Source of the DNA: an uncultured Desulfobacter sp. | Lineage (GTDB): Bacteria > Desulfobacterota > Desulfobacteria > Desulfobacterales > Desulfobacteraceae | Direction of reading: 5' to 3' | Assembly: GCA_963665095.1 (NCBI GenBank) | Contig: OY762069.1 | Span: forward strand, 4,736,001 to 4,800,000 | DNA length: 64,000 bases | Shown here: positions 34,057 to 51,388 of the stretch, piece by piece | Numbering within the stretch: position 1 is the stretch's first letter | How the letters are laid out: every line of letters begins with the position of its first letter | Notes under the pieces: generated by a model | What the model was told of the DNA's origin: nothing | Databases searched by the model: none | The model's input: only the letters and a program-made list of their open reading frames with translations | Translations under genes and position numbers: made by a program

Positions 34057-34116
34057 TTGGGGTCAGAGTAAAATTAAATTGTGCGCAATTTAATTTTACT
34101 CTGACCCCAATTATTT
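34051..34116. repeat. Long palindrome (REP-like), copy B; probable bidirectional terminator
   Basis: 31-bp arms AAATAATTGGGGTCAGAGTAAAATTAAATTG with a 4-nt loop, filling the gap between convergent stops. Confidence 0.85.
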
Positions 34117-34637
34117 TATAGTTCTGTTATTAGCCTGTTGATGGTCTGGAGGTACTCTTCCCGTTTGATTTCATGGCCGTTTTCCAGGTCTGCCTTGAAC
34201 CGCTCCAGGGCTTGCCGGGTGTGCGTGCGGACTTTATTGGTCTGATTCAGGGTTCTGGACATGGTATTGAGATCGTTTTCAAGTTCCGAAAACCAGTCGC
34301 CTTTTCTGAAGCTGATATGCTGCTCAGGCGGATGCCCCTGGGCCATTTCCGACATGATTATACGCAATTTTTTTATAGGCCCGGCAATGGTGGTGGTGCG
34401 CCTGGCAATAAAGAAGAGAACCCCTGCAATAAAAAGCAGACAGAGTATCGCCAGGATAACCAGAGAGCTGGTATTACAGGACACGGTCAGATTACTGTCC
34501 AGGTAAATCAGATAAAACCAGGACATGGCAAAACCGGTGAGCAGGATACCGGGAATTTGCAGCACAGCAACAAAAAAGGCCCACCCCAGCTGCAATTTGG
34601 GATTGACGATTACTTTACGTTTGAATTTGTTTTTCAT
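34116..34637 (-). CDS. Two-TM HAMP-like membrane protein
   Basis: 2 TMs, then IAGPIKKL...FRKGDWFSELENDLN. Confidence 0.65.
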   Translation of the reverse strand: MKNKFKRKVIVNPKLQLGWAFFVAVLQIPGILLTGFAMSWFYLIYLDSNLTVSCNTSSLVILAILCLLFIAGVLFFIARRTTTIAGPIKKLRIIMSEMAQGHPPEQHISFRKGDWFSELENDLNTMSRTLNQTNKVRTHTRQALERFKADLENGHEIKREEYLQTINRLITEL

Positions 34638-34648
34638 GCTTCTCCTCT

Positions 34649-35029
34649 TTACGGCCCTGTACGGGTCATATCATCTTCTGTTCCAATAAGTCCGTCCGGC
34701 CCGGGGCTCTGAAGGGTATAGGCTTTACCATCCCGGGAGAGCAGGTAGACCATATCATTTCCCCAATGATCCACCATGACAGCCTTTTGTTCGTTTTCCT
34801 TGAAATTCTGTTCCAGCCAGCGCTCAAACCGCTTTTCTGTGGGCAGCCGACCCTTTTTCAAATATTCATAATCCAGCATCAGGCTGATGGTCCGCATATC
34901 CCCAGCCGTGGCCACCTGGCGGGCCATGGCCGTGGTTTCATCGTAAAACTGCATGATGCTGTCGGAATTCCCGGCAATCAGCCCCAGGGTAATTCCGCCC
35001 ATAATCAGCCGTCGAATAATTTCAACCAT
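34649..35029 (-). CDS. GspG-like pseudopilin domain protein without a class III cleavage site
   Basis: DHWGN...YTLQSPGPDG..GTEDD, the GspG C-terminal motif. Confidence 0.7.
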   Translation of the reverse strand: MVEIIRRLIMGGITLGLIAGNSDSIMQFYDETTAMARQVATAGDMRTISLMLDYEYLKKGRLPTEKRFERWLEQNFKENEQKAVMVDHWGNDMVYLLSRDGKAYTLQSPGPDGLIGTEDDMTRTGP

Positions 35030-35043
35030 AATCAGTTACCGGC

Positions 35044-35598
35044 CTATGCTGCCGGATGCTCCACTGTATTTTCGCTGTTTGTAATTTTACGTTTTTTTAA
35101 CCGGAGAAGGGCCAGGATTCCCACTCCCAGTGCAAGGCCTGCAATACTGACCGGCATCACATATTTTTTATAGTAATAGGCGGTTTTTTTAACATAGGTA
35201 TACATCTCAACCGGTGTCTTGCCCGGCACCTCAAATGCCCAGATTCCGGAGTCAAGCCGGACAATAGTGGCATGGTCCTCGAAGATTCCTTTGCCCTGCT
35301 TGATATCTTTGGCTTTGAATCCTTTGCTCATATCAAGCGTTTTAAACCGGACTATGGCACGATCTCCCTGCTGGTCCACGCCCAGGAATGTGTTTACATA
35401 AAACCGTTTCTCCGGCCTTTCAAATTTCCCCTTGTAAAACTCCCTGTGTACATAGGATTCGAAAAAGTAAGCAATATCATCAATGGTGAGCACCTCCTTT
35501 TCCAGAGGCACCCTCATCCGGCCTTTGGTGCTGTGGGCCATGGCCTGGGACTGGAACCCGAACACCAGAACCAGACAAAACAGAAAAATGTGTTTCAT
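35044..35598 (-). CDS. Exported protein with C-terminal TM anchor
   Basis: Signal peptide ending AMA then HSTKGR; C-terminal TM followed by LKKRK. Confidence 0.65.
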   Translation of the reverse strand: MKHIFLFCLVLVFGFQSQAMAHSTKGRMRVPLEKEVLTIDDIAYFFESYVHREFYKGKFERPEKRFYVNTFLGVDQQGDRAIVRFKTLDMSKGFKAKDIKQGKGIFEDHATIVRLDSGIWAFEVPGKTPVEMYTYVKKTAYYYKKYVMPVSIAGLALGVGILALLRLKKRKITNSENTVEHPAA

Positions 35599-35664
35599 AA
35601 AATCACCTCTTGCAGTTTGAAGCGTTATTTCCATAATGATCTTAAAGTCAGTTAATCACATTCA

Positions 35665-36579
35665 TCAGGCCGCATCCCCGTCACCACCGCCCTTGGCCGT
35701 ACGTTCCAGGATAAAAGCGTCCAGCTTGTCCTGGTTCACCTTGACCTTATATTCTTCTTTCAGGCGGTCATAGGTGTTCTGCCACGCTTCCCGGTATCTG
35801 GCATAAAGCAGATCATTGCGGATATAGGCCGCTTTTTCTTCATAGGAATGCACCACAGGGTCTGTTTTTGATACCAGTTCAAACAGATACCATGCCGCAT
35901 CTATATTATGGGGGCCGGATAAGCTGCCCGGTTCAAGTGTTGCAATGACCTGTCGCCAGGCCGGCTTAAATTTTTTCAGGGACCTGGTTCCGATGTCACC
36001 GCCCCTGTTCGCCGTCTGTTTGTCCACGGAATAACGGGCCGCCGCCTCAATAAAATCCATCTGTGCCCCCTCAATGATCTGGCGCGCCTCAAGAGCTGTC
36101 TGTTCATCACTGGCTTTAATCATTCGTACACTGAGCAGGGACGGGCTGGTATAGCTCTCCTGGTTGGTTTCATAAAACTCTTTGAGCTGGTCCTCAGTGA
36201 ATTGGTCTTTATCGATTTGGGGCACCAGATGTTCCTGCATCACTTTTAAGAACAAGTCCGACATATACGCATGGATCTGCGCCCGGATCCGGGGATCCTG
36301 GTGCAAGTTCTCTTTCAGGCCTTTGGCAATGATCATTTCCATATTCACGGCATGATCAAAAACAAACTCAGGGGTTAGCTGTTCTGGCCGGCCTCTGAAC
36401 TGTGACGAGTTTTTTAATTTTTCATAATGGGCGTCCAGATCCTGGGCCGTGAGACACCCGCCGTCAAACTCCACCAACGCATCATCCCTGGAATTGCATC
36501 CCCAAAGGCAGACACACAAACAACTGATAAGTAGAACCGCTGGAAAAAGAAACCGAGCTTTCTTCATGTTTTTCTCCAT
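35665..36579 (-). CDS. PpiC-type peptidyl-prolyl isomerase lipoprotein
   Basis: Lipobox LWGC; F.EAAARYSVD..TANRGGDIG. Confidence 0.82.
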   Translation of the reverse strand: MEKNMKKARFLFPAVLLISCLCVCLWGCNSRDDALVEFDGGCLTAQDLDAHYEKLKNSSQFRGRPEQLTPEFVFDHAVNMEMIIAKGLKENLHQDPRIRAQIHAYMSDLFLKVMQEHLVPQIDKDQFTEDQLKEFYETNQESYTSPSLLSVRMIKASDEQTALEARQIIEGAQMDFIEAAARYSVDKQTANRGGDIGTRSLKKFKPAWRQVIATLEPGSLSGPHNIDAAWYLFELVSKTDPVVHSYEEKAAYIRNDLLYARYREAWQNTYDRLKEEYKVKVNQDKLDAFILERTAKGGGDGDAA

Positions 36580-36620
36580 TTAAATATTATATGCCTCGCT
36601 ATTTAGTTAAACGTGACCCG

Positions 36621-37820
36621 TTATTGGGCGTATAGAGCAAACATCCCTGCCACCAGCCCCCAAGCTACGTATCCCACAATCGAACCCAGGATGATAATCA
36701 GCACCGGCTCAATCATGGCAGTCATCTTGGCAATTTTGCTCTCCAGGATCTGCTCATGCAGATTCTCCACAGACCGCATGGACTGATCCATCAACCCTGT
36801 CTCCTCGCCAATTTTGATCATGGCCTGGAACATAGGCGTGAAAAACCGCTTTCCCTTCAGGGCTGAAGAGAGGGCCAGCCCGGCCATAACCCGCTGGTTC
36901 ATATCCTCGATGAGACGTTTCACCTCCAGGTTGGGCACAGTACCTGCCACGGAATTCAGGCTGTCAATCAGGGTAATCCCGCTTTCCAGAAGCGATGCAA
37001 AGGTCCTTGCAAACTGGACGATCACCCCGTAGCGCATGATCGGGCCGACCACGGGAACATGGATTTTATACCGGTCAATGTATAACCGGGTGGACGGGGT
37101 TGCCATCAGCAGGACAATAAGCCCTGTCAGGATAAAGGCGCCTGTAAAAATACCCATGACATTGGATTGCAGAAACTGGGAGGCATCCAGCAGGAACTGG
37201 GTGTTGGCGGGCAGTTTGCGCCCCTGCAGAAGTGTGGCAAATTTAGGAATCACAAAGCCCACAAAAAAGCCGATCACCACAACCGTGACCACAAGAATCA
37301 CAGAGGGGTAGATCATGCTCAACACCATTTTGCGCCGCAGGGCGGCTTTGCCCTCCAGGTAATCAGATATCCGATCCAGGACCACATCCAGAATACCGCC
37401 AAGCTCTCCGGCCCGGATCATGTTCACCACAAGCGTGGAAAAAATTTTGGGATACTTGGCAAAGGCATCCGAGAGCCGGACACCGCCTTCAATATCCCCC
37501 TTGATATTGATCAGCGCGTTCCTCATGGTCCGGGACTCCGACTGCATGTGCAAGATTCCCATGGACTCGGAGATGCTTAGATTGGAGTGGATCAGGGAAG
37601 AGAACATCCGGAAAAACAGCACCAGCTCCTTGGTGCCCACCCCAAAAGAAAACGGCATCCCGCCGATTCCGGCCGCTGCACCCGTGAGTTCATAAATATC
37701 CTGGATAATAAACCCGTCCGCCGTTAGCAGCCGGGCAGCCGCCCCTTCATCCGGAGCTGTAATAGTGTTTTTGACCTTGTTACCTTCCGGGTCCACCGCA
37801 GAGTATTTAAAAATGGGCAT
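36621..37820 (-). CDS. PilC/GspF inner-membrane platform protein
   Basis: AGELGG.LD, YP..IL, LLESGI.L, GEETG, MIEP. Confidence 0.93.
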   Translation of the reverse strand: MPIFKYSAVDPEGNKVKNTITAPDEGAAARLLTADGFIIQDIYELTGAAAGIGGMPFSFGVGTKELVLFFRMFSSLIHSNLSISESMGILHMQSESRTMRNALINIKGDIEGGVRLSDAFAKYPKIFSTLVVNMIRAGELGGILDVVLDRISDYLEGKAALRRKMVLSMIYPSVILVVTVVVIGFFVGFVIPKFATLLQGRKLPANTQFLLDASQFLQSNVMGIFTGAFILTGLIVLLMATPSTRLYIDRYKIHVPVVGPIMRYGVIVQFARTFASLLESGITLIDSLNSVAGTVPNLEVKRLIEDMNQRVMAGLALSSALKGKRFFTPMFQAMIKIGEETGLMDQSMRSVENLHEQILESKIAKMTAMIEPVLIIILGSIVGYVAWGLVAGMFALYAQ

Positions 37821-37832
37821 GATGGTAACTCC

Positions 37833-39482
37833 TTACCCCAGGGTTACCCGGGCGATCTCTTCGGGGGTGGTTCTGCCCTGCCGGATTTTGTCAATTCCAT
37901 CCGACCGCATGGTCCGGTAAGCGGTATGTGCCAGGGCATAATCCCGGATCTGCTCGAAAGTGGCCCGTTGCATGATCAGGGAGCGGATCTGTTCATCCAC
38001 GGAAAGCAGTTCATACAGCCCCATTCTGCCCCGGTAGCCGTTGGTGCAGTTGGGACAACCCTTACCCCTCTGGACATCAAAGCATTCGTCGGCATCACAC
38101 TCCAGCATGGACAATTCCGAAGGTGTCACTCTGTGGGATCCGGTACAGGAGGGACACACCTTTCTAACCAGGCGCTGGGCCAGTACCGCCCTTACAGAGG
38201 CTGCCACCAGAAACGGCTCGGCCCCCATGTCAATCATCCTGGAAAAGGCGGACGGCGCATCATTGGTATGCAGGGTGGAGAGTACCAGATGCCCGGTGAC
38301 TGCTGCCCGAAGCGCAATATCCAGGGTTTCGGAATCCCGAATCTCACCCACCATGATAATGTCCGGGTCCTGGCGCAAAATGGCCCGCAGCGCATTGGCG
38401 AAGGAGAGCTTTTCCCCGGAATCCACCTGGGTCTGGTTGATGCCCCGCAAACCCAGTTCCACAGGATCCTCAATGGTGGTGATATTGGTGGCTTCACTTC
38501 TCAATGCCTGCAAAGATCCGTAAAGGGTGGTGGATTTACCGGACCCTGTGGGCCCTGTAACCAGCACAATTCCGTAGGGTGCGGTCACAGCCCGGTTGAA
38601 TTCGGTCAGCATTTCATGGGTCATGCCCAGCCCGTCCATGTCAATGATCTCGTCATGGGGAGGCAACAGCCGCAGCACGGCTTTTTCTCCGTTGGTCACA
38701 GGCAACGTACTCACCCGCACATTCACCCCGTCCATGGAGAGATTCAACAGCTTGGGTTCAAAGAGAAAAGAGCCGTCCTGGGCCCTTCTGCGTTCAGAAA
38801 TATCCAAACCAGCCATCACCTTGATCCGGGAGACAATCCGGGCCGCCAGGTCAAAGGGCAGCACTTCGGTTCGGGTCATCTGTCCGTCGATTCTGAACCG
38901 GATCACCAGCTCATCCATCTCCGGTTCCACATGAATATCCGATGCCCCGGCATTCACCGCCCGGATCATCAGCTTTTCAAGTAGTTCAATAATTAAGGTG
39001 GAGTTCTCACCAGAGAGCATGGCCTCGGGTCGGATGGTGGTGTCAAATCCCATGCTGTAGCAATGGTTCTGCAGTTTTTTCACCCTGGACCGGGTGGTGA
39101 GCACCAGCTTAATCTGCCGCTTGGAAAGCCGGGACATATTCTGGATCACGGCCTGGGGCACTGGCCCTGAACAGGCCAGAAGAATCTCATTGTTCTCACC
39201 CAGGGCCACGGGCAACACCCCTGACTTAAGACACATCTTCTGTGGGATGAGATTCACCAGATCCCTGCGCACGTCCAGTACGGTCTCGGACATCAGTGGA
39301 ATGCCCAGGAAATCAGACAGATCCTGGAGCATGCGACCCTGTTCCAGAAGCCCGTCCTTGACCGCGACATCCCCGAATTTTTCTTTGGAGATTTTCTGCT
39401 TGGAGACAAGGGTTGTGACCTGTTCCTGGGTTAAGGCCCCCTGGTTGACCAGATATTCTCCAAATCGCTCTTTTCTTGCCAT
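37833..39482 (-). CDS. PilB/GspE assembly ATPase
   Basis: ASDIHVEP, GPTGSGKSTT, TIEDPVE, LRQDPDIIMVGEIRD, tetracysteine motif; N-terminal RFGEYLV (MshEN-like). Confidence 0.95.
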   Translation of the reverse strand: MARKERFGEYLVNQGALTQEQVTTLVSKQKISKEKFGDVAVKDGLLEQGRMLQDLSDFLGIPLMSETVLDVRRDLVNLIPQKMCLKSGVLPVALGENNEILLACSGPVPQAVIQNMSRLSKRQIKLVLTTRSRVKKLQNHCYSMGFDTTIRPEAMLSGENSTLIIELLEKLMIRAVNAGASDIHVEPEMDELVIRFRIDGQMTRTEVLPFDLAARIVSRIKVMAGLDISERRRAQDGSFLFEPKLLNLSMDGVNVRVSTLPVTNGEKAVLRLLPPHDEIIDMDGLGMTHEMLTEFNRAVTAPYGIVLVTGPTGSGKSTTLYGSLQALRSEATNITTIEDPVELGLRGINQTQVDSGEKLSFANALRAILRQDPDIIMVGEIRDSETLDIALRAAVTGHLVLSTLHTNDAPSAFSRMIDMGAEPFLVAASVRAVLAQRLVRKVCPSCTGSHRVTPSELSMLECDADECFDVQRGKGCPNCTNGYRGRMGLYELLSVDEQIRSLIMQRATFEQIRDYALAHTAYRTMRSDGIDKIRQGRTTPEEIARVTLG

Positions 39483-39517: not shown

Positions 39518-40675
39518 TCAACGGAACCATCTGCGCTTGCCGGTTGTTTCATTCTCAGTCTCAGGTGCCTGGTCCACCATCAGCCGCTGTTTCATCAGGT
39601 TTTTGTTTTTGGCCGCTGCCACAGCCGTCTCCACAGAAATTTTGCCCTTTTTAACCAGCTTAATCAGGCATTGCTCCATGGTCATCATGCCGTCGTTGAA
39701 CCCGGTTTCAATATTGGAATAGATCATGTCATCCTTGGCCTGGCGGATGAGATTGGCAATGCCTGGCGTTGCAAACATCACCTCAACCCCGGGAATCCGG
39801 CCGGTATTCCCGGCATTGGGCAGAAGCCGCTGGGACACCACTGCTTTGAGAGTCGATGCCAGCTGCTGCCGGATCTGGGGCTGTTCACCGGCTGGAAACG
39901 CCCCCACCAGTCGGTTAATGGTGGAGACACAGTCCCGGGAGTGAAGGGTGGAAAAGACCAGGTGGCCTGTTTCTGCGGCCATGATGGCCGTGCGCATGGT
40001 TTCAAGATCCCGCATCTCGCCAACCAGAATTACGTCCGGGTCCGCACGAAGGGCATCTCGCAGGGCGGAAGAAAAAGAGGATACATCAGAATAAAGCTCA
40101 CGCTGGTTGATTATGCTCATTCGGTTTTCATGCACGTATTCAATGGGGTCCTCAATGGTGATGATGTGGTGGTTCTGGGTGTCGTTGATCTGGTGGATCA
40201 CCGTGGCCAGGGTGGTGGACTTACCGGAGCCTGTCACCCCTGTTACCAGGACCAGACCATCCCGGATGGTGGGCAGCCGGGACAAACAGTCAGGCAGTCC
40301 TAAACTTTCAAATGTGGGAATCCCGGAAGCCAGGAGCCGGAACGCCGCTGAAATGGCACCTCGCTGGTAATACGCTGCCACACGAAACCGGCCCACGTCG
40401 TTGATGCTCACGGCAAAATCCACGGACTTCTTTTCCTCAAGCACTTCCCGGTAACGGTCCGTGAGCACCTGGTCCATGAGCCGCCGGATATCCTTGGAAG
40501 AATAGGGCGCATGCCCGGGATGAGGCGTAATTTTTCCCTTGATCCTGTACATGGGCGGCATGTCTGCGGCCAGGTGAAGGTCAGATGCCCCCATCTCAAG
40601 CGTCCGGGCAAACAGTTCCCTGATATCTTTTTCTCTGACCCCTTCGGTGAAGGGAATGTCCACACAAACTCTCAT
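39518..40675 (-). CDS. pilT: PilT-family retraction ATPase
   Basis: ASDLHL, GVTGSGKSTT, TIEDPIE, ALRADPDVILVGEMRD, AETGHLV, ANLIRQ, GMMTM. Confidence 0.9.
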   Translation of the reverse strand: MRVCVDIPFTEGVREKDIRELFARTLEMGASDLHLAADMPPMYRIKGKITPHPGHAPYSSKDIRRLMDQVLTDRYREVLEEKKSVDFAVSINDVGRFRVAAYYQRGAISAAFRLLASGIPTFESLGLPDCLSRLPTIRDGLVLVTGVTGSGKSTTLATVIHQINDTQNHHIITIEDPIEYVHENRMSIINQRELYSDVSSFSSALRDALRADPDVILVGEMRDLETMRTAIMAAETGHLVFSTLHSRDCVSTINRLVGAFPAGEQPQIRQQLASTLKAVVSQRLLPNAGNTGRIPGVEVMFATPGIANLIRQAKDDMIYSNIETGFNDGMMTMEQCLIKLVKKGKISVETAVAAAKNKNLMKQRLMVDQAPETENETTGKRRWFR

Positions 40676-40690: not shown

Positions 40691-42748
40691 CTAATAAATC
40701 ACATCTTTTTCCTGTTGATCGTTCAGGCTTGCCCGGCCTTTATCTGTTTTGCCCGGATTCTGGGTTTCGGCCTTTTGCCCCGCATCCACAGACTCAGCTG
40801 TCCTTTTCTCATCGGTCAGCAGATTCTCCCGGCCATCAAGTATGGTGGTGTGCGAGCTTCTGCGCTGCAAAAATAGATCGGTCTCCTCACCAGCCAGCCC
40901 GGGATGGTTGATAATATGCGGGGTGATAATGATCACAGTCTCGGTTTTCTGGGTGGAGTCGTTCTCCTGGCGGAACAGGTACTTGAGAAGAGGCACATCC
41001 CCTAAAAACGGGGTCTTTTTCACCGAGTTGTCCACGGTTTCCCGGATGATGCCACCCAACGCAATGGTCTGTCCGGACTTGGCCGTGACAATGGACTCAA
41101 TCTCGCTTTTGGTCTGGCCGTCCAGGGGGAACTCAATGAGATTGCCGTTGTCATCGGACAGGGTCACCGCGGTCATGTTGTACTGGGCCGAAGAGATTTC
41201 GGCATCAATCTCCATGGTCACGGTATTGTCTTCATTGATAAAGGTGGAGATCTCTAAGTCAGTGCCAAGCTCTTCCCTGAGGATATCAACAATAAAGGTG
41301 TTGATGGTGTCCCCGGAATCGCCGATGGGAATGGTCTCCTTGGACACATCATCCCGCAGGGGCACCTCTTCGCCTACAAAGAAATTCACCGTGGCGTTGT
41401 TGGCGCACATCAGAAAGGGCGATGATATGGTGTTGGCCCGTCCCTCGGACTCATACAGCGAGATCTGGGCCTGGATATTGCTGAAGGAGAGAATCCCGCC
41501 CAAAGTGGAGCCGGAGGCCGCGCTGCTGGCCAGGGTGCTCAGACCGCCCCCTTCATTTACTGTTCCGCCCGGTGTTATACGGCTGTCCGTAGTGCTGCCG
41601 GAATAATCTCCGAAATCAAACTGGAAAAAGCTTTCAAACTCGTCCCCCAGGGTAATCTGCAGAATTTTTACCTCCAGCAATACCTGACTTGTGGGGGTGT
41701 CCAGGGTTTCAATGATCTTTGCCATCTCGTTGATCAGGCTTTGGTCCAGAGAACGGGCAATGATGGTGTTGTTCCTCTTGAACACCGTGAGAATGGCCAA
41801 AAGCGGCTTTTTACTTTTAGTGCTGCTCTTTTTAGCTGTGGCATTATTGGCAGCGGAGACGGCAGCCGCAGCCGCAGCCAGGGTCTCCTGAAGGACCTGC
41901 TGCTGTTTCGCCTGGTCTGCCTGGGCACTGCTGCGGCTCTCCTGTCCGTAGCTACTCTGTTTTGTCAGTTGATTCATGAACACAATGCGCTGGGACGCAG
42001 AATTATCCAGGTCCGGGCCGTCATATTCCCCGCCCAGATCCACCTCCTCCTCCGGATCCACATGTCCGTATATCTTTTCATCCTCAATGGCGGCCAGGTA
42101 AACTTCCGAGCCCATGAGTGCCTGGATGATTTTGGCCATGTCCGCGGCATTGGTGTATTTAATGGAAAACGCCCGGGTATGTTCGGTCTGGCGGATCTCA
42201 ATGTCATTGACATACTCCTCCCGGGTCATCAGGGTCACAATATTATGCCCCTCCCGGAACCACAGGTTGTTGAGACGGCAGATGGTTTCAAGGGCGGACC
42301 TGAGACTGATATCCTGCATGTAAATACTGATATTGGTGTTTTCAACGGTTTTGGTGGGCACCACATTGGTGCCGCACAACCGGGTGAGCAGTTCTGTAAG
42401 CTGTCTTACCGGCACATCGCGAAGAATCAAAGAGCGGATGATTTCAGACATGCCCTTGAGCGCGTCCGCTTCCTGTGCGCCCGCGCTCATAAGTTTTTCA
42501 GCCTGTCCCGGTTCAACTTGCGTCCCCTTGATAACCTTGACAATGGGCTTCTCCCCGTCCGGATAGAGGTCCTTGATAGTGGGGTGTTTTTTCTCCACCC
42601 CGTCAATGACCATGCGGGTATTGTATGGATTGGGTGCGGCCAGGGAGTCCGGGCTTTCAGGTTTGGAATCATTGCACCCTGCCATCAGGGTGCAGGCTGC
42701 TGTGAGAACTGCCGGGAACATGAATTTTGTCAGGAATTTCTGGATCAT
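40691..42748 (-). CDS. Secretin (GspD/PilQ family), lipoprotein type
   Basis: Lipobox MAGC; QVLLEVKI, GQTIALGGII, PFLGDVPLLKYLF, VIIITPHII. Confidence 0.92.
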   Translation of the reverse strand: MIQKFLTKFMFPAVLTAACTLMAGCNDSKPESPDSLAAPNPYNTRMVIDGVEKKHPTIKDLYPDGEKPIVKVIKGTQVEPGQAEKLMSAGAQEADALKGMSEIIRSLILRDVPVRQLTELLTRLCGTNVVPTKTVENTNISIYMQDISLRSALETICRLNNLWFREGHNIVTLMTREEYVNDIEIRQTEHTRAFSIKYTNAADMAKIIQALMGSEVYLAAIEDEKIYGHVDPEEEVDLGGEYDGPDLDNSASQRIVFMNQLTKQSSYGQESRSSAQADQAKQQQVLQETLAAAAAAVSAANNATAKKSSTKSKKPLLAILTVFKRNNTIIARSLDQSLINEMAKIIETLDTPTSQVLLEVKILQITLGDEFESFFQFDFGDYSGSTTDSRITPGGTVNEGGGLSTLASSAASGSTLGGILSFSNIQAQISLYESEGRANTISSPFLMCANNATVNFFVGEEVPLRDDVSKETIPIGDSGDTINTFIVDILREELGTDLEISTFINEDNTVTMEIDAEISSAQYNMTAVTLSDDNGNLIEFPLDGQTKSEIESIVTAKSGQTIALGGIIRETVDNSVKKTPFLGDVPLLKYLFRQENDSTQKTETVIIITPHIINHPGLAGEETDLFLQRRSSHTTILDGRENLLTDEKRTAESVDAGQKAETQNPGKTDKGRASLNDQQEKDVIY

Positions 42749-42758: not shown

Positions 42759-43112
42759 TTAATCTACCTCCACCTCACAGGTCTCTCCGTTGCCGGCCTT
42801 TAACAAAATGCTCCTGTTTTTGATCTTTACAATCCGGTATGTATGGTCTACCCCGTTGTGGGTCACAATGATTCTGGAATCCTTTGAATAAACCGCGGGC
42901 GGCCGTTCCGGATTTGTCCGGACAATGACCTTGGCATTGGTGTCCGTGGTGATCAGGCCGATGATTTCGATCTGCTTTTTGGCGGCCTTATAGTTGAAAA
43001 GCGCCTGGGGAGGGGCTGCCGGCTCTTCAAACGGACTTCGTTCGGCAGCAGCTGAAGGCAGTGCCGCAAAGAGGTAAAGCAGGGTCAGGCAGACAAGCGC
43101 GTGGGGTTTCAT
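42759..43112 (-). CDS. PilP-like periplasmic protein
   Basis: Signal peptide, RSPF motif, beta-rich; lies between the PilO-like gene and the secretin. Confidence 0.6.
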   Translation of the reverse strand: MKPHALVCLTLLYLFAALPSAAAERSPFEEPAAPPQALFNYKAAKKQIEIIGLITTDTNAKVIVRTNPERPPAVYSKDSRIIVTHNGVDHTYRIVKIKNRSILLKAGNGETCEVEVD

Positions 43113-43135: not shown

Positions 43136-43678
43136 TTAAATTTTCAGGGTAAAGGCAATGGATAACGGGGATGATTTCACCCCCGAACTGGCCATCTGGA
43201 TGCCGGAAACCTCCACGGCATCCCCAAGCTGCTCAAGTTCCATCAAAAAGTTGACAAACCCTGTAAAATCGCCTTTCAGGTTCATGGTAAAAGGGGACCA
43301 GTCAATGTATTTTCCCGGTTCCCGCTCTTTGGGGGCAATGGTGATCACCTTCAGGTCGTTCATCACCATGATGGTGGAGATTTTGCTTAACAGCCGGGAG
43401 ATATCATCCGGGTTGCCCGCGTTCAGGGCCAGGTTGCCGTTCTCCTCTTTAAGTTCGGCCAGGCGCTTTTTATTCTGCTCAATGGTTTTTTCCAGTTGGA
43501 ACAGCGGAGGAATATCCTTTAGTTTGTTCAGTTCCGCCACCACTTTGTTCCGTTTTTTCAACGTGGTTTGAAGCACCTTGGTCTGGGGATCATACATATA
43601 TTTCATGTAGAAAAAGGTGCAGGCGATGATCAGTGCCGCCGCCAGCCCGAACTTTTCAAGATTGGTCATGGATTTCAT
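43136..43678 (-). CDS. PilO-like protein
   Basis: TM plus coiled coil plus GDFTGFVNFLMELE; ATGA overlap with the upstream stop. Confidence 0.75.
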   Translation of the reverse strand: MKSMTNLEKFGLAAALIIACTFFYMKYMYDPQTKVLQTTLKKRNKVVAELNKLKDIPPLFQLEKTIEQNKKRLAELKEENGNLALNAGNPDDISRLLSKISTIMVMNDLKVITIAPKEREPGKYIDWSPFTMNLKGDFTGFVNFLMELEQLGDAVEVSGIQMASSGVKSSPLSIAFTLKI

Positions 43679-45185
43679 TGAACTGCCTCGCTTTCCGGAT
43701 TGACATCCACCTGAACCACAAAGCTCAGCTGACTGCCGGTTTTGGCGTCCAGGGATTTGAGAACCGCTGAGGTGCACCACGCATTGTCCTGCATGGCAAC
43801 GGAAAAAAGCCCCACCCGGGTCAGATCCCAGCTCCGGCCGGTAATGGTGAAGGTGTTGGGTGTATCGGGATTCTGGGCCACGGTATCCAGCACCAGCCCG
43901 TCAGGCACGGCCCTGGCGACACCTTTAAAGCAGGTCACCAGGATGGCAAGCTTCTGGTCTGCAATCCTGTTGACAAAGTTGATGCGGTCCTGGACCGTTC
44001 GGATATCTTTTTCCAGCTGGGTGGCTTTTTTCAGCAGATCCTCATATTTCTGGATGGTACTTTTGTTTTTTTCCACCTCTGCGAGTATTGTTTGATGTCG
44101 GACTTAAACCGCCGCTCCTGGTATTTCATGAACTGATTGTGGCCCAGAAGCCCTAGGGCCAGGACAGAGGTGGCCACCAGGGGCATCACATAGACATTGC
44201 GCTTGAGCCGGACCCGTAAAGGTTCGGAGTCATCAATCCCCACCTTGTGCATGGTCTTGCCGCCAAGCTCCCTGCAGCCTGCGCCCACGGCCGTGCCGAA
44301 TATTGCATCTGCAGGGTCTGTCTCCTTGTGGGTGATCTGGGCGGTTTTGGACAGCATCAGGGGCCGGGCTCCGGATGGAGAGAGTCGGTTTACATAGTCG
44401 GCAATTTCCGGTATGGCCGCCCCAGGACCTGTCAGCACCACCGGCTCATGGTCTGGGGCCTGGGACAGGGTGAACTTGAGGCTGCTTTCCAGATCCCGAG
44501 ATCCAACGGCCGAGGTGAGGTGGGACCGAATGGCGTCTGATGAGAAGTTCAGGGTGGAGATCTGGTCCGGGTGCCGCCCCTGGAATATGGCAAAGTTGGA
44601 ATAGTCCGTGCCGATTTCCAGAATGGCCCGGGGGATGTCCGGACTTTCCAGGAACAGGGGCATGTAAAAACTGACCTCGGGCGGATAGACCCGGATCAGC
44701 TTCAGACCGGCCGCCTTAAACCGTTCCCGCACCGCCACATAAACATTTTTTTCAATGGCCGAGATATTGACCATGATCTCGTCGGTCTCATTCTCGTATA
44801 CAATCTCGCCGGGTGCGGCCTTGGGTTGGGGCTCTTTTTCCACGCCCACCAGGGCATTGCCACCGGTGATTCCTGTATAGGATTCAATCTCCCATTTGGC
44901 AGCCTCTGACAGCTGGTAGTCCGACATGTTCGACACTTTTTTGCGGTCCATGAACAGCTCTGTGGACCGGGCCAGGGCCGTGACATACACGGCATTTCTG
45001 CCCGTATACTTAAGCGTCTCCTTCAGCTCTTTGAGGCTGTCAATGGCCGGCAGGTCTTCATCGGGCTTGGAGCGCTTCATCCCAGCATAGTCCAGGATGG
45101 CAATTTTGTTGCCCCTTCCCTTGAGCAGCACGCCTCTGATGATATCTTCACTGACTTCCACGGCCAGTATGGTCTGTTGCAGCAT
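43675..45185 (-). CDS. PilM-PilN fusion interrupted by a 1-nt frameshift near 44066-44085 (tracked as two ORFs)
   Basis: ORF 44031..45185 carries an actin-like PilM region plus the PilN-type TM. ORF 43675..44076 carries the PilN periplasmic part (AVPDGLVL, ITG.S) without a TM. Confidence 0.65.
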
Positions 45186-45218: not shown

Positions 45219-47363
45219 TTAAAATACTTGGAAAGCCGCTGTGTCCATCTCGATTGATTCCACCTGGCCGGTGCCGGCCATGGGCAGAACATTGAAGATC
45301 ACCTGTTTGAAGGACTCCCCCTCGTCCAGCACATCATCGTTATCGTCATCATTCCACACCACAAGGAACCTTGCTCCGGTGCCAAGAACAGTGCCTGAAC
45401 CGGAGAACTCAAGACAGGGACTGCCGGGCCAGGTGCCGGTACTCCAGTCATCGGAGGTCCCGTCGCTGTCCTCATCGGTCAACGCAGCACAGGTTAACAC
45501 CGTGTCATCTTCCAGGGTGCCGTCCTCATTGGTTATACCGTCCACAAAGAGCCGGGCCTTGGTGGTGGATGCCGTGGCATTGAGTACGGTGAGACTGCCT
45601 AAGGTCAGATACCCCGGCGTGAACTGATATGCCCGGATCTCCAGCACCTGGTTGTCCTGGTTTTCCGTCTGGGTCGGATCATAGTCATCAATGTCCAGGA
45701 CCTCATCAAAATCATCGGGCTCGGCCTTGGCACCATCCACAGTGGTGCCGAAATCAAACAAACCGTCCGTCCCCCGGCTCAGTATCAGCAGGGCATTGTT
45801 GCTGGTATCTTTGAAAAACAGGATCTCATTGCCCCAGGCATCCCGGATTACCTGATTCTTATCCAGGCCTTCGGGCACCGAATGATAGGCTCGGGCCCAG
45901 CCGATGCCCCAGGCTTTTTCATCCAGGTCATCCGTAACGCCGTCCTCACCCTCATCATTGTCCGCTGTGTCAGACAGATTGGGGGTCCGGGTCCAAAGTC
46001 CCCTTGGCTGACCTTTGGTATAGTCGGTGTCGGTACTGCTGACCACCATCTGATTATCCCACTGGCCTGTTTCACTTTCGCTTTCAGCCGCCTCCCAAAG
46101 AAACAGGTCCGGCAGTTCAAGCAGATCTCCTGTGTACCCGGTGTTCAGCCCCTCCGGACTTCTGCCGATGAGCGCCCGTTTAATTGAGGACAAAATTGCC
46201 GCTGTGGCTGCCCGGTTATCCGCTTCTTCCTGTTCAAACACGGTTTCATACTCATGGGAGTAAATCTTCATCACAATATTGTCCTGGTTTTCATCCAGGG
46301 TGTCGTCATAGGCTTTGCCCATGGTGTCATCGGCGTCCACACTCCAGCTGTGGCCGGTGCAGGTCCCCTTGGTGGGATATCTGGCGTCAAAGTCCGGCCC
46401 TTCGGACACTATCCAGAAGATGGTGGCATCCTCCCGGTCCGGGTCCGCTGTGATAAAAAAGCGCAATGCCCTTCCCCAGCCGTCCATGAACCGGCCGTCG
46501 GTATTCAGCAGCCGATATTTTTCCTTGTCATCAAACAGCTCGCCCATGGCAGCGTCATAATCCCCGTCTTCCCAGGTCTCCCAGCCCGAGGCGTCAATCC
46601 AGGCAGGAGGGAGCTTTTCATAGTCTGCCATACTTTTGGCATAGTGGCTGCCCGCCTCATCACTGCGGGCACTGGGCGGCAGGAGATAGGGGCCTTTCCA
46701 CTCCTCCCCCGCTTCATCTCCCAAAATTTTGCCCGGGGCTTTATGGTCTTCGGAGAGATCAAAAGGCAGATCTTCCACATAACAGGTCCACAAGCCCCTT
46801 GGCTGGCCCTCGTTTTCCGTTTCAAGGCCGCCGATGTGGTCCGCATTGTCAGTGGTGTCGTCGGTTAGCTTCCGGTAGGGGGCCAGCCATTTCCACCTTT
46901 TTTGTACAAACTCACCCGCCGGCCGGAAAAAGACGTAATCCGAGTCCATGGTGTAATCAGGCCCCTGGCCAAGGCCGGCTGTCAGGTTTTCAGGATCATC
47001 CCAGCCTGTGCCCTCAAAGCTGGGCTTGATCTCGGCCCGGGCCTCCCACAGATCCGGGAATGCCTTCATATCCCCCACATATCCGCCAATGACCCGCTGC
47101 CCGTTCTTGTCATATACCCCGGCAGGCCCCATGACGGCCTTTCTGATCCTTTCCATGGTCTCCCGGGTGATCTGCGCTTTACGGTCATTATCCATGGTGC
47201 CCAGGGCGGACCAGGCCATGGCGCTCATCATCCCTAAAATAAAGATCACGATCATGACCTCCAGCAGGGTAAAGCCGCTTTGGCAGGCAATATCTTTCCC
47301 AATGCCAATCAATGGGCTTTCCAGGGTTGTCTTGTTCTTTTTGGGGGGTGGCGTCTTTTTCAT
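45219..47363 (-). CDS. Giant acidic pilin-like protein (714 aa) with internal duplication
   Basis: G|FTLLEVMIVIFILG class III signal; two GQPRGLWT repeats and two D.WG...S.G.D GspG-like motifs. Confidence 0.8.
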   Translation of the reverse strand: MKKTPPPKKNKTTLESPLIGIGKDIACQSGFTLLEVMIVIFILGMMSAMAWSALGTMDNDRKAQITRETMERIRKAVMGPAGVYDKNGQRVIGGYVGDMKAFPDLWEARAEIKPSFEGTGWDDPENLTAGLGQGPDYTMDSDYVFFRPAGEFVQKRWKWLAPYRKLTDDTTDNADHIGGLETENEGQPRGLWTCYVEDLPFDLSEDHKAPGKILGDEAGEEWKGPYLLPPSARSDEAGSHYAKSMADYEKLPPAWIDASGWETWEDGDYDAAMGELFDDKEKYRLLNTDGRFMDGWGRALRFFITADPDREDATIFWIVSEGPDFDARYPTKGTCTGHSWSVDADDTMGKAYDDTLDENQDNIVMKIYSHEYETVFEQEEADNRAATAAILSSIKRALIGRSPEGLNTGYTGDLLELPDLFLWEAAESESETGQWDNQMVVSSTDTDYTKGQPRGLWTRTPNLSDTADNDEGEDGVTDDLDEKAWGIGWARAYHSVPEGLDKNQVIRDAWGNEILFFKDTSNNALLILSRGTDGLFDFGTTVDGAKAEPDDFDEVLDIDDYDPTQTENQDNQVLEIRAYQFTPGYLTLGSLTVLNATASTTKARLFVDGITNEDGTLEDDTVLTCAALTDEDSDGTSDDWSTGTWPGSPCLEFSGSGTVLGTGARFLVVWNDDDNDDVLDEGESFKQVIFNVLPMAGTGQVESIEMDTAAFQVF

Positions 47364-47472
47364 TTTTAAATGACCGTATGCGTTCGGTATGGTTTTTCAG
47401 TCAACTTCAATGGGTGGACCTTGTATCCGCAATGGCATCTGTTTTTAGTTTAAAATCACTCTGTTTTTGCCT

Positions 47473-48063
47473 TTATTCTCTTCCCCAGGTTTTTACTTGA
47501 ATTTTGCTGCCATACCCGAAGAAGCGGTACACACCGTCACACAATGCTTTGATATTATTAGCTGAAAGATTGGTTTCAACAAAAATGCCGGAGTCTTTGA
47601 TCGGACGACCGTCTCTGAGCCAATTGCGTTTTAAGGCAAAATAAGCCCTCTTCCCTTGGACGCCCTCAATTGCCCGGGCAAACGTCTCCCTGTTTTCGGC
47701 GTAGATTCTTGCGCATAAATCAGTGAGCAAGTGCTTCCATGAAGTAACATCATGCCTTTCCCCGCCGAGTACATACCATAGCGGTTTTGTCCCCTTATAA
47801 ACTTCTTCGTGGGAAACAGTGATATATTCAAACCCGCCGACAAAACGGTTTGAGGGTGCATCATCTGTCATGTCAGAATCCGTGACGGACAGGAACCGTT
47901 TCTGGAAATAGGCCGCCACCGCCTGTTTTTCCGGCTTGAGTCCGGTTTGGTTACCGGCTTCTCGAATAATATGTTCCATTAAAATATCCGGCATATTTCG
48001 ACCCAGCGATGCCATGGTCCGGTCAAGGGCCGCTTCCATTTTTTTGTCAAGTATGGCTGTCAT
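47473..48063 (-). CDS. Hypothetical cytoplasmic protein with putative DNA-binding domain
   Basis: ATG one base after the upstream TGA. C-terminus SWK.LL...YF...FVETNLSANNI...FGY recalls a module seen fused to restriction proteins. Confidence 0.5.
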   Translation of the reverse strand: MTAILDKKMEAALDRTMASLGRNMPDILMEHIIREAGNQTGLKPEKQAVAAYFQKRFLSVTDSDMTDDAPSNRFVGGFEYITVSHEEVYKGTKPLWYVLGGERHDVTSWKHLLTDLCARIYAENRETFARAIEGVQGKRAYFALKRNWLRDGRPIKDSGIFVETNLSANNIKALCDGVYRFFGYGSKIQVKTWGRE

Positions 48064-48064
48064 C

Positions 48065-49090
48065 TCAGTCTCCAATATCCCCGTTATCATTAAAATCAAT
48101 GCCCCAGAAGCTGGCCCCGGAAGAGGGATGAAACTTCTCCCCGATGGCGTTGATCACTGTGAAAAAAGCCGGGTCCTGGGCTTCGTACAAATTAATTTCA
48201 CGCACCTTTGCAATGGACAGGTCAGACGCTTCTGCGCTGGATGACGTGTCCATTGCAAAACTGGTGAACGTATCTGCGCCCAATGGATTATCTTGTTCCA
48301 GTCGCATGGAAGTGGCGCTGAGCCGGGGAATCACAAGGGAGTACCAGGCATAGTCAAAGTTGTGTGGTTCGGTGATGCCGTGGGGACAGACCGATGCATT
48401 GAACATATAGCCCTGCTTTATCAGTTCACTCTCCGGGCCCAGGCCAAAGAGAATGCAGAAATTAAGATCATTTTCCCCCCAGCCGGGTTCATCCGTATCC
48501 ACTTCAGTGGCCTCAATGACGCCGTCGTCATCACTGTCCCCGCCACCGATCATCAGGACTGCCGTGCCTGCGGCCACCTTTTCCATGACAGGGGAGGGGT
48601 TGGACACGGCATCGTCATAGGCGGAGTTCAGGTTGTACACATGGACAATGCCCATGTCCCGGAGTTCCTGTGCCTCATCCTCATCCAGATAATGCACAGC
48701 CGGCCGGCACCGCTGTTCAAAGGCATAGGCCAGCACCTCCCTGCCGTTGTCCGGGTCCTGGTCCGACACTTCCGGTTTCTGATAGTCACCGGAACTCTCG
48801 TCTGTGGAGACAATGTTAATAAGCCCGCCCGGATATTTGCCATAATCCTGGATATAGGCCGTGATGAACTTGATCAGTCTGGCTTCGTTCATGCGTCCTC
48901 CCGTGTCCGTGGCCTGGGCTGTCATTCCGGCAAACTTAGGCGCGGACATGGCCAGGATAAACCCGAGGACAGTGAGAACTATCAGGACTTCCATAAGGGT
49001 GAAACCTGATGAATTAAAGGGGAATGAAGGATGCCTGATTTTGGTCACCGAACTTGGCATTTTTATACCTGCAGATGCAATATTTTTCAT
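48065..49090 (-). CDS. Large type IV pilin-like protein, paralogue of the major pilin
   Basis: G|FTLMEVLIVLTVLG; shares SD.DPDNG.E.L, HYLD..EA.E...MGIV.VYNLN, PRL.AT and WGID with 49150..50292. Confidence 0.85.
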   Translation of the reverse strand: MKNIASAGIKMPSSVTKIRHPSFPFNSSGFTLMEVLIVLTVLGFILAMSAPKFAGMTAQATDTGGRMNEARLIKFITAYIQDYGKYPGGLINIVSTDESSGDYQKPEVSDQDPDNGREVLAYAFEQRCRPAVHYLDEDEAQELRDMGIVHVYNLNSAYDDAVSNPSPVMEKVAAGTAVLMIGGGDSDDDGVIEATEVDTDEPGWGENDLNFCILFGLGPESELIKQGYMFNASVCPHGITEPHNFDYAWYSLVIPRLSATSMRLEQDNPLGADTFTSFAMDTSSSAEASDLSIAKVREINLYEAQDPAFFTVINAIGEKFHPSSGASFWGIDFNDNGDIGD

Positions 49091-49096
49091 TGGAAA

Positions 49097-49123
49097 GGCA
49101 GAGGGAGATAAACTCCCTCTGCC
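49097..49123 (-). terminator. Stem-loop after the major pilin (partial terminator or stabiliser)
   Basis: 11-bp perfect stem GGCAGAGGGAG/CTCCCTCTGCC with a short U tail on the minus strand. Confidence 0.7.
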
Positions 49124-49149
49124 ATGGTGCTCAGATTAAACGATAACGA

Positions 49150-50292
49150 TTAATCTTCGGCAATGGCACCGGCAGTCGGTCCGCCGTCGGCAGCAGTCGG
49201 GTTAAGGTCAATGCCCCAGTAGTCGCCGTCATCAGCAGGATACATGTGGCCTTCAGGGCACATGGTGGCAAACTGCCAGGTTGACTGAGCTTCTGAGATG
49301 TTGAAGGTCCGAACTTTAAAGTTGTCAGCATTACCGACATAGTCATAATCTGGACTGGGTTCGTCATCGGTGTAACCCACGCAGTAAGCCTGGAGACCGT
49401 CTTCAGAAGAGTCTCCGTCAATGGCGTCAATTGCGGCACCTTCAGTGGTATCATCCATTCTTACCGTAGTTGCCGTGAGACGAGGAAGTACCAGGTTGTA
49501 ATCATTGTAAGTTACGTTGTCGGCATTCTGAATGCCACCAGGGCAATGGGCTGCGTTGGCGATAACACCGTCTTTGACCAGAGCGGATTCAGCGCCCATA
49601 CCCATAACAATACGGCCAAAAAATTCAGGCTCACCCCAGCCACGCTCATAACTCGGAAGGACAAAAGCGTTACCAGAAGCGCCTGTATTGATACCAGTGG
49701 CAACCATCATAACACCAAGCCCTTCTTCAACAGTCACTTTTTCCATTTCAGGAGCTTTGGTAACGCTTGTTGCCAAAGCGGTGTCATTGGGACCAGGGTC
49801 GGTGGTGTCTGTTGAAACAGTATTATTGTAACCGGATTTAATTGCTGTGCCATCATCCAAATACGCATCATAAGCATTAAGGTTATATACAGACACAATG
49901 CCCATATTTTTGATCTCAGCGGCTTCGTTAGCATCCAGGTAATGAATCATGAAATGATTTCTTTCATTGAATTCAGCCGCCAGAGTTTCTGCACCATTGT
50001 CCGGGTCGCCGTCAGAAATAGCTGGAATCTGATAGGTATCAGCCGCTGTTTCTTCAACAATGTTGGTCAATAGGTTCGGAAAACGATTAGTTTTTTCAAA
50101 ATAAGAAGCCATATAAGTAACCATTCTGTTCTGGTTAGTGTCGCATACCGTATCAACGGCGTCGCCGGAGATGCCGGCAAGGCGGGGTGCGACCATGGCA
50201 ATGAGGAAGCCCATGATGGTCAGGACGACCAGGATTTCAAGCAGGGTAAAACCTTTTTGATTGTTAATGTTCTTGTGCTGTTTCTTTTCCAT
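49150..50292 (-). CDS. Putative major pilin, unusually large (380 aa)
   Basis: AAGGAG RBS then MEKKQHKNINNQKG|FTLLEILVVLTIMG; first pilin of the operon, flanked by stem-loops. Confidence 0.85.
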   Translation of the reverse strand: MEKKQHKNINNQKGFTLLEILVVLTIMGFLIAMVAPRLAGISGDAVDTVCDTNQNRMVTYMASYFEKTNRFPNLLTNIVEETAADTYQIPAISDGDPDNGAETLAAEFNERNHFMIHYLDANEAAEIKNMGIVSVYNLNAYDAYLDDGTAIKSGYNNTVSTDTTDPGPNDTALATSVTKAPEMEKVTVEEGLGVMMVATGINTGASGNAFVLPSYERGWGEPEFFGRIVMGMGAESALVKDGVIANAAHCPGGIQNADNVTYNDYNLVLPRLTATTVRMDDTTEGAAIDAIDGDSSEDGLQAYCVGYTDDEPSPDYDYVGNADNFKVRTFNISEAQSTWQFATMCPEGHMYPADDGDYWGIDLNPTAADGGPTAGAIAED

Positions 50293-50522
50293 TTTGTACT
50301 TCTCCTTTAAAATAAAGTTTAAGGCTAAGTACAAACAACCCACCCTCAGAGTCTGCTGCACTATGTGGCGCCGTGGGTTTCCACGGCAATTAAAAAATTA
50401 AGTGTTTTTCCCGGTATGTTCCGGGCCTTGCGGTATACCTTGTTCCGGCGCCCTGCCGCGACACAAGAAGTATTGCCTTAAATAACGGTGGTTCAAATCC
50501 TCCTTTCGGTTAAATTTGCGGG

Positions 50523-50762
50523 TTAGGGGTTTGCTGTGGGAGACACCGCCCGGGCATGCGGCCCAGCGGGCTTGAGCTGTCCTGCGTCGTAATCCACCAC
50601 ATATCGAAAGTCCTTGCCGCAATGGATAATGACCTCTTTCTGGCCTTTTTTAAGAAACCGCATTTCTACTTTCAGCTCTCCAAATCCGTCGTGCATAAAT
50701 ATATCCGTGTACAATTCCTGGATTTTGTCCAGTATGTCGCTGTGTTCCCGGGCAAGATTCAT
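50523..50762 (-). CDS. Small hypothetical protein
   Basis: AGGAG RBS; compact core HDGFGELKVEMRFLKKGQKEVIIHCGKDFRYVVD. Confidence 0.65.
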   Translation of the reverse strand: MNLAREHSDILDKIQELYTDIFMHDGFGELKVEMRFLKKGQKEVIIHCGKDFRYVVDYDAGQLKPAGPHARAVSPTANP

Positions 50763-50862
50763 GAATCTCCTGTTCTTTTCCTTACGGCTTTGCCGGCTTT
50801 ATTGGGTGTTTTTGTCCGGGCCTGTCGGGCCCGAAGATTTGACTCATTGCTAATTCGGGGGA

Positions 50863-51270
50863 TTAACAGGCTGGAGGACCCCGGTACACCAGCCAGGCAT
50901 GAAAATCAGCCGGCACCGGAACGGGGGACCCGGGGCAGGAGAGGTCAGGACCGGGTGGGGCCGGCCTAACCTCCTGGTGACGAACGACCTGCTGCTCAGG
51001 TGCTTTGACGCATGAGTCGAAAATAGAACAGTGATGGAGGTGATACCCGTCTGTATTTCGCTTTTCAATACAGGCCACAAGACGAGGCGCACCGTTATCT
51101 GCATTCCGGTGTCCATGGGTATGAAACTGTTTCAGGTCAGACATGCCATGCCAGGACGTATGACATATTCCTGATGCGAAAAGATTGAAGGTAAACAATG
51201 CCAGCACCACAAGCACCACCATGGGCACTTCCGGTACAGTTGAATTTTCTTTTTCAAAAAGGTCAGGCAT
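50863..51270 (-). CDS. His/Cys-rich leader protein with C-terminal RGPP motif (DUF2946/CruR/CutF-like architecture)
   Basis: N-terminal hydrophobic segment, 10 His and 6 Cys, Pro-rich linker, ends YRGPPAC-stop. Confidence 0.6.
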   Translation of the reverse strand: MPDLFEKENSTVPEVPMVVLVVLALFTFNLFASGICHTSWHGMSDLKQFHTHGHRNADNGAPRLVACIEKRNTDGYHLHHCSIFDSCVKAPEQQVVRHQEVRPAPPGPDLSCPGSPVPVPADFHAWLVYRGPPAC

Positions 51271-51357
51271 TTATTCACCATATCAAACAAATCTATGTAT
51301 AAAGATTTGCCTTGTCTGTATCGACTAACTTGTATTGCTTAGACTTAAAAACAAGAT

Positions 51358-51388
51358 GCGTTATAACGCCTGATAAGATAGGTGTCAA
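51358..51388 (-). promoter_or_regulatory. Sigma-70 promoter of the filament operon with a palindrome over the -10
   Basis: Minus strand TTGACA-N17-TATAAC; perfect palindrome GCGTTATAACGC at 51358-51369. Confidence 0.75.

Follow-up and report, generated by a model that had tools for sequence, protein, structure and literature searches.

A conserved type IV filament operon with giant pilins and a probable place in the iron-limitation regulon of Desulfobacter and its relatives

The 64,000-nucleotide stretch of an uncultured Desulfobacter sp. analyzed here (contig OY762069.1, positions 4,736,001 to 4,800,000; termed the window) carries on its minus strand an operon of 17 co-oriented genes (51270-34116, pilMN counted as one) for a type IV filament machine with unusually large pilins. 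Judged from its sequences, this is a conserved, patchily distributed, self-contained filament system with PilT, and it lies outside the model cut-offs tested for type IVa pili (T4aP), type II secretion systems (T2SS), the mannose-sensitive hemagglutinin (MSHA) pilus, Tad, and Com. It is apparently an undescribed variant; no description of it was found in the open-access literature searched. Operator boxes and gene neighbors at related loci make it probable that the system belongs, family-wide, to the iron-limitation regulon. A sequence-only reading of the window had proposed a single co-oriented operon that fits neither T2SS, T4aP, MSHA, nor Tad, which we confirm, and a link to metal, which we retain in altered form. 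Coordinates given below for operon genes and their upstream signals are on the minus strand.

The system is rare within genomes of one lineage and widely scattered among lineages. A full-length copy of its first pilin (pilin 1) was present in 3 of 61 related genomes and in 4 of 300 phylum genomes (six candidates scored per genome), and searches for pilin 1 homologues gave 303 at 90% clustering and 106 clusters at 50% identity with E <1e-30. A genome scan yielded 42 loci, including two same-genome pairs and one copy of G012 (a same-genus genome), whose record titles name Desulfobacterales, Desulfobulbales, Desulfuromonadales/Geobacter, Syntrophobacteraceae, Gammaproteobacteria, Planctomycetes, and Bacillota; named cultured carriers include Desulfobulbus rhabdoformis, Desulfofustis glycolicus, Desulfotignum balticum, and Desulfuromonas thiophila. 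Most of these loci repeat one order (small open reading frame (ORF), giant pilins, PilMN, PilO, secretin, PilT, PilB, PilC), and the core of this order is kept wherever the contig extends far enough. PilT was found in every full locus examined, and no secretin was found in the covered stretch of the two Bacillota (monoderm) loci, L057 and L060. The small ORF at the head of the order (50523..50762) encodes a 79-residue protein that is present in 30 of the 42 loci and marks the system; within the phylum sample it also pointed to two more diverged versions with pilins of ∼305-311 residues.

Comparison with the described machines placed the operon beside T4aP and T2SS rather than within either. 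Like a T4aP, it has class III pilins, PilB, PilC, PilT, PilM/N/O-like proteins, and a secretin; unlike a T4aP, it forms one compact operon with a fused PilMN, lacks matches to PilY1, PilU, and PilHIJK-type proteins, and has a PilB that scores below the TIGR02538 cut-off (504 versus 676 bits), although this model also misses the PilB of E. coli and Thermus. With T2SS it shares GspG-like domains, the single operon, and a secretin that scores best against GspD, and it differs in having PilT, in occurring in monoderms, and in staying under the GspD (166 of 351 bits), GspE (491 of 630), GspF (300 of 424), and GspG (28-36 of 89) cut-offs. No orthologue of GspH, I, J, K, L, or M was found in the operon, where the GspH model matches only the N termini of the big pilins. 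The secretin is likewise under the cut-offs for PilQ (TIGR02515, 145 versus 284 bits) and MshL (TIGR02519, 116 versus 250 bits), the only Msh match in the operon is an MshEN domain, the TadA and ComG models score far under their cut-offs, and a Flp-sized pilin is absent from the operon. The PilB phylogeny that the sequence-only reading had suggested as a check agrees with this placement: 13 PilB proteins of the system fall on one side of a branch (SH-aLRT, an approximate likelihood ratio test, 99) from 16 PilB/GspE rows of the window's class, and apart from the three over-cut-off PilB rows of that class, in a quick tree built without named outside references, including Tad, type IVb pilus, and Com types. 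Since the same genome also has a canonical T4aP (PilB over cut-off), two further PilT-family genes, and further PilB/GspE systems, this operon represents an additional machine.

The connection to iron comes in part from operator boxes upstream of the system. A DtxR/IdeR-like palindrome, TTAG-N6-CTAA, occurs in exact form in 8 of 32 upstream regions (shuffled regions: mean 0.07, maximum 1). A de novo palindrome search converged on GC-rich noise, and this fixed pattern was used instead. In 628 kb, 25 of 29 exact boxes precede iron genes or first pilus genes, and the box also stands before feoAB and siderophore-receptor genes. An out-of-sample set of 16 metagenome loci (four of them duplicates) gave eight nonredundant loci with the small ORF, L069 included; four of the eight have the exact box 170-205 nt before the small ORF, a fifth has it ahead of the neighboring AraC gene, three have none, and three of the four positives look mutually related. 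The box is also carried by L124, a diverged system, and in exact form by L038, from the cultured Desulfofustis glycolicus DSM 9705; in the Bacillota locus L057 a Fur-like box takes its place. A matrix built from 20 nonpilus sites and run on the window's genome put a TonB siderophore receptor at the top, DUF2325 at rank 5, and feoB at rank 8; rank 6 is a flavodoxin-like gene, named from a motif, and the remaining top matches were not identified as iron genes. In the window, a degenerate box with one mismatch (51398..51411), likely a DtxR/IdeR-type operator, lies just upstream of the -35 element, where the exact boxes of L031, L034, and L037 also sit. The predicted sigma-70 promoter itself (TTGACA-17 nt-TATAAC, 51360..51388), which had been pointed out before the leader, is visible in the sequence; the promoter scan, which requires a T at position 6, does not list it.

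Gene neighborhoods point to the same metal. The sequence-only reading had proposed a survey of Desulfobacterota for neighboring metal transporters. Of the 24 loci whose upstream DNA reaches 4.5 kb or more (L033, L053, L054, and L059 were left out), 10 have a feoA, feoB, or dtxR-family gene; the number rises to 16 if DUF2325, DUF2023, flavodoxin, the class III binding protein, and two small co-travelling genes are counted as well. Labels were assigned by Pfam on one representative each and spread by BLAST clustering, and an iron-type neighborhood is expected in ∼0.7% of 10-kb windows of this genome. In 6 of the 42 loci and two of the new ones, the operon itself includes, beside a pilin paralogue, a binding protein of siderophore/heme type, whose similarity is to iron-siderophore and heme-binding proteins (best E 6.5e-6). 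In locus L054 a flavodoxin-feoAB cluster and a box that fits the published dFUR consensus lie just beyond the operon end. Because of the feoAB/dtxR neighbors, the in-operon binding proteins, and the DtxR-/Fur-type boxes, we read the metal as iron rather than Zn, Ni, Co, or Cu; the metal link of the sequence-only reading holds, for reasons other than those it gave.

Several observations weigh against an iron-regulated, iron-binding filament. Even a one-mismatch box is missing from 20 of the 32 upstream regions, and both of the window's own boxes are weak: the better one, the second (51311..51332), scores 9.4 bits and ranks 185 in the genome. The box was first spotted by eye in the same regions in which it was then counted, and kin are not independent. 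An iron-type neighbor is missing at 8 of the 24 loci, no iron gene was found among the flanking window proteins scanned, and the argument that ties DUF2325, DUF2023, and the two small genes to iron is in part circular. The DtxR-family neighbor scores closest to MntR models, which makes manganese conceivable, and the loci carry other controls (AraC, Crp, and c-di-GMP riboswitches). As to the filament, iron regulation is no proof of iron binding, no iron-binding motif was identified in it, and acidity is common in surface proteins of marine bacteria.

The three class III-signal proteins of 380, 341, and 714 residues noted earlier were borne out, each with PF07963 and TIGR02532 over cut-off. Pilin 1 (49150..50292; 366 residues when mature) has a codon usage at the 99.6th percentile among 3,714 ORFs, and its codon bias and position make it the likely major subunit. 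In that role it exceeds the published T4aP major pilins, 1,955 of which are given in PMC11046646 as spanning 42-297 residues. Its structure model (predicted local distance difference test score 93.8) has pilins as 13 of 14 fold matches and shows a pilin core interrupted by a large insertion without a match among solved structures; sequence searches against solved structures matched only the N-terminal helix. Pilin 2 (48065..49090) is a pilin 1 paralogue that is optional among relatives. Pilin 3 (45219..47363; 684 residues when mature), a predicted minor or tip pilin, has an internal duplication of GspG-like domains or motifs, with T2SSG matches in 5 of 30 members. All three are acidic (15-19% D+E), pilin 1 having 15% D+E against 5% K+R, and 8.4% aromatics.

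The idea that these giant pilins scavenge metal through Cys/His motifs is improbable. They are not Cys/His-rich, with three to five Cys each, and the full conserved set C36/C236/C331/H335 occurs in pilin 1 only; pilin 2 retains C236 alone, and pilin 3 has one moderately kept Cys (18/30) and two kept His (28/30). All four residues are retained in 116 of 117 close pilin 1 homologues. More distant relatives keep all four in 34 of 84 rows and none in 26 (phi 0.58-0.86, for the 84 of 89 rows ungapped at the four sites and ignoring kinship), and repeated loss of the site was judged by eye on a quick pilin tree. Because the residues stay or disappear as a set and are missing from many paralogues, we read them as structural, likely forming one Cys3His metal site rather than a scavenging site. 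The structural zinc ligands of the C. difficile pilin PilJ are C36, C81, C111, and H114. The fold match to PilJ (PDB 4ixj) ends at residue 334 of the pilin 1 model versus 114 of its chain, a range that, like the covariation of the four residues, agrees with a PilJ-type site; PilJ differs in being a minor pilin of 228 solved residues and has no sequence match to pilin 1.

Sulfate reducers live where sulfide precipitates iron, yet their enzymes need much iron. The best explanation we can offer is as follows. Low Fe(II) would take a DtxR/IdeR-type repressor (Fur in some lineages) off the promoter, and pilin 1 would be synthesized in bulk, cleaved by the genome's PilD, and folded round its structural Cys3His metal, probably zinc. 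PilB, PilC, and PilMN/O would polymerize pilin 1 through the secretin, and pilins 2 and 3 would join in as minor subunits. The strongly acidic filament surface might then bind iron minerals or iron chelates, and PilT might retract this load for import by FeoAB or the class III binding protein; these are the two least supported steps. c-di-GMP, and in this genus an upstream RGPP leader, would act as additional control layers. That a retractile filament induced by iron starvation itself fetches iron for FeoAB or the binding protein is plausible, if short of probable. The complete account is put forward only tentatively: an iron-fishing pilus of an undescribed subtype in diderm and monoderm anaerobes, with the largest major pilin relative to the T4aP survey and a place in the DtxR/Fur regulon, that would reel in iron, as mineral or chelate, for FeoAB or a binding protein and whose small regulator would act on an undescribed RNA hairpin.

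There are partial precedents. Synechocystis (PilA1; PMC4144903) and Legionella (PilA2; PMC13170364) each grow on scarce or insoluble iron with the help of a type IV pilin. As those reports describe them, these are ordinary small T4aP pilins, and the Legionella effect is independent of pili, whereas the present operon encodes a machine of its own that appears to be part of the iron regulon. If our explanation holds, the closest functional analogy would be the Sulfolobus bindosome, which also uses large class III-signal proteins for nutrient capture but, as described in PMC4471445, is an archaeal machine with sugar-binding ABC proteins and no PilT or secretin. For the predicted iron regulons of sulfate reducers, the iron section of PMC545781 names FeoAB, porins, and a putative siderophore cluster, and no pilus.

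The RGPP leader (50863..51270) is a His/Cys-rich ORF of 135 residues with a hydrophobic N terminus that ends RGPPAC; only three among 19,737 ORFs of 60-300 residues in the genome end near R[AG]PP. The motif is kept in the G012 leader (51% identity, 37-residue tail) and in G013, whose leader ORF lost its middle. It thus outlasts a large deletion and two differing stop positions, and the ORF is probably real. No copy was found outside the genus by tblastn, in 61 genomes, or in the protein database; one leader scan covered hits within 25 residues of the stop and missed long tails like that of G012. As a family trait the leader is ruled out, having been found only in three same-genus genomes, so the family-wide metal evidence once seen in it falls away: being a local add-on, it offers no explanation for the family. 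It has no CXXC and no match to DUF2946 or any other Pfam family at E 0.05. The leader fits the arrest-peptide pattern of a small secretory ORF with a C-proximal R[AG]PP described in PMC12992588, which makes it a candidate arrest peptide. Such RGPP/RAPP motifs are, in the accounts of PMC12992588 and PMC9426467, enriched in small secretory leaders preceding metal genes. The Bordetella CruR/DUF2946 leader is likewise encoded by a small upstream ORF of exported type that has Cys/His residues and R[AG]PP near its C terminus, but, going by PMC9426467, it differs from the present one, which has RGPP rather than RAPP, lacks CXXC and a DUF2946 match, precedes a pilus operon, and was found in one genus only.

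Four other explanations were weighed. Iron shortage could be a mere cue for a pilus of adhesion, aggregation, or surface motility whose lifestyle switch would be c-di-GMP. In keeping with this, 6 of 23 loci have a c-di-GMP-I riboswitch ahead of pilin 1, PilB bears the MshEN domain, PilT is present, and large modular pilins act as adhesins elsewhere (PMC10191384). We nevertheless consider it doubtful, since a canonical T4aP and two further PilT-family genes are already at the cell's disposal, and the in-operon binding proteins and feoAB neighbors suggest a closer tie to uptake. The T2SS likenesses described above would suit an exporter or short endopilus that secretes or displays iron-binding proteins without a long filament. 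This is unlikely given PilT in all full loci examined, PilN/PilO rather than GspL/GspM matches, the want of GspH/I/J/K-sized pilins, the monoderm versions L057 and L060, in whose covered stretch no secretin was found, and a codon bias that suggests bulk pilin 1 synthesis.

The soft-metal form of the hypothesis, in which the RGPP leader senses Cu, Zn, Ni, or Co and the pilin Cys/His motifs capture the metal, draws on the persistence of RGPP through a large deletion and two stop positions, on the frequent position of RGPP/RAPP leaders before metal genes (as presented in PMC12992588 and PMC9426467), and on ZnuA, NicO, CobN, and nickel-insertion genes, each near single loci. We regard it as quite improbable: the leader was found in only three genomes of one genus and has neither a DUF2946 match nor a CXXC, and the joint retention (34/84) and joint loss (26/84) of the four pilin residues fits a dispensable structural site. 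Least probable is a conductive filament that reduces or contacts iron minerals by electron transfer. Desulfuromonas, Geobacter, and Desulfobulbus are among the carriers and a multiheme gene adjoins the operon in the window, but the aromatic content of pilin 1 is ordinary, no cytochrome is conserved among the neighbors scanned, and the multiheme gene is on the opposite strand and is missing at that place in G013.

Between the leader and pilin 1 lie elements that may regulate the operon. The 79-residue protein is a predicted regulator of an unnamed family, with no Pfam family at E up to 5 and only unnamed look-alikes in the Atlas; a resemblance to HemP or DUF2292 was set aside, having no Pfam support over that range. 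Before the pilin 1 gene are a conserved motif A with a short predicted hairpin (50443..50463) and, just ahead of the pilin 1 ribosome site, a conserved RNA hairpin B with a fixed 7-nt G-rich loop (50331..50359). Hairpin B matched no Rfam family, is single-copy in the genome, and is conserved into Bacillota. Its inner helix is 91% paired, both sides change in six of seven pairs, and its covariation score is 0.39 versus 0.22 when shuffled and at most 0.19 when slid. These values come from 36 rows (35 of 44 candidates plus the window, with nine doubtful or near-duplicate rows left out), and the structure was derived from the same rows used for scoring. That the 79-residue protein acts on hairpin B is a guess. 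The c-di-GMP-I riboswitches in 6 of the 23 loci scanned include both same-genus relatives, none was found in the window, and the MshEN domain of the window's PilB is slightly below the c-di-GMP motif cut-off (35 versus 38 bits). Other loci show further signals upstream of the small ORF. A second promoter motif (T-run, GCC/GTC, CGTTAG) was seen in L026, L043, L046, L048, L049, L050, and L055, mostly directly behind an AraC gene, and is a possible AraC activator site. CRP/FNR-like TGTGA-N6-TCACA boxes occur in L021, L022, L038, and L041, and Crp-family genes adjoin L022, L038, L044, L051, and L061.

The remaining genes of the operon follow with intergenic gaps of -4 to 66 nt, the exceptions (100, 230, and 109 nt) being close to the operon front. 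Most of the inventory drawn up earlier was correct; it had overlooked a 196-residue ORF between pilins 2 and 3 (47473..48063; weak SeqA-C match, E 0.014), which has no counterpart in other loci, is absent from relatives, and stands outside the conserved system. A fused PilM-like/PilN protein (43675..45185) comes after pilin 3. In the window this gene has a break in frame. PilM plus PilN is a single ORF of ∼500 residues in 31 related loci, and four of four sequencing runs have one additional base at the break, so the frameshift is a one-base assembly error and a pseudogene or programmed frameshift is ruled out. PilO (43136..43678; PF04350, E 5.5e-9) and the PilN domain were matched by hidden Markov models; the PilM part and an exported protein at the PilP/GspC position (42759..43112; no family match) had no such support, and their names rest on position.

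Model or lipobox matches upheld the lipoprotein secretin (40691..42748), the PilT-family ATPase (39518..40675; TIGR01420, 444 bits versus a cut-off of 319; IANLIRQ motif), a predicted retraction motor, and the PilC/GspF platform protein (36621..37820; PF00482, T2SSF), as well as a predicted lipoprotein peptidyl-prolyl isomerase (rotamase; 35665..36579) and a GspG-like protein of 126 residues (34649..35029; PF08334, E 2e-6) without a standard class III cleavage motif. The PilB/GspE-type extension ATPase with its MshEN domain (37833..39482) was matched by PF00437. Between the isomerase and GspG-like genes is that of an exported protein (35044..35598) with a C-terminal membrane anchor and no family match; its predicted mature N-terminal His, once taken to point to metal, is kept in five of five copies, which is weak evidence. 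A metagenome scan with this protein gave no matches, and the operon 3′ end is known from six copies. The last gene encodes a 173-residue two-helix membrane protein (34116..34637; weak HAMP-like match, E 0.046). The core machine genes lie together, as had been claimed of a self-contained system, with one reservation: no prepilin peptidase gene was found in the operon, one A24-type gene lies elsewhere in the genome, and in locus L059 the peptidase is within the cluster.

Some side observations concern the surroundings of the operon. At its end (34052-34117) is a ∼65-bp palindromic element of which every one of the four runs has many high-depth contig variants; it is a candidate repeated REP/MITE-like element or bidirectional terminator. 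At 52988-55630 an 880-residue protein has a multiheme cytochrome domain attached to membrane segments like those of cytochrome bd oxidase subunit I, and a short ORF at 51498-51851, without a Pfam match, resembles a truncated MarR-type regulator. In G013 pilB is split (G013:C1:861376-863025), possibly another assembly error. Two unnamed families without Pfam matches (∼97 and ∼125 residues; L026:2746-3039 and L049:7600-7980) travel with dtxR and DUF2325 and are candidate iron-regulon members. A CobN-like chelatase (L050:925-4866) and an 841-residue protein with a weak HmuY match (L024:1349-3874), both upstream of the system, hint at heme as a possible iron source. Elsewhere, an island at G000:C1:1750000-1770000 (L102) combines three TonB-dependent receptors with two AraC genes, an ABC transporter, and a fusion of a class III binding protein with a membrane domain, and it has the strongest TTAG-N6-CTAA box of the genome.

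If these readings are true, an iron-controlled retractile filament would offer a testable route to mineral iron, a nutrient-capture subtype would join the type IV filament family, and a 366-residue major pilin would widen the known size range. The operon also adds a small protein family that has no name yet, as well as a new RNA hairpin.

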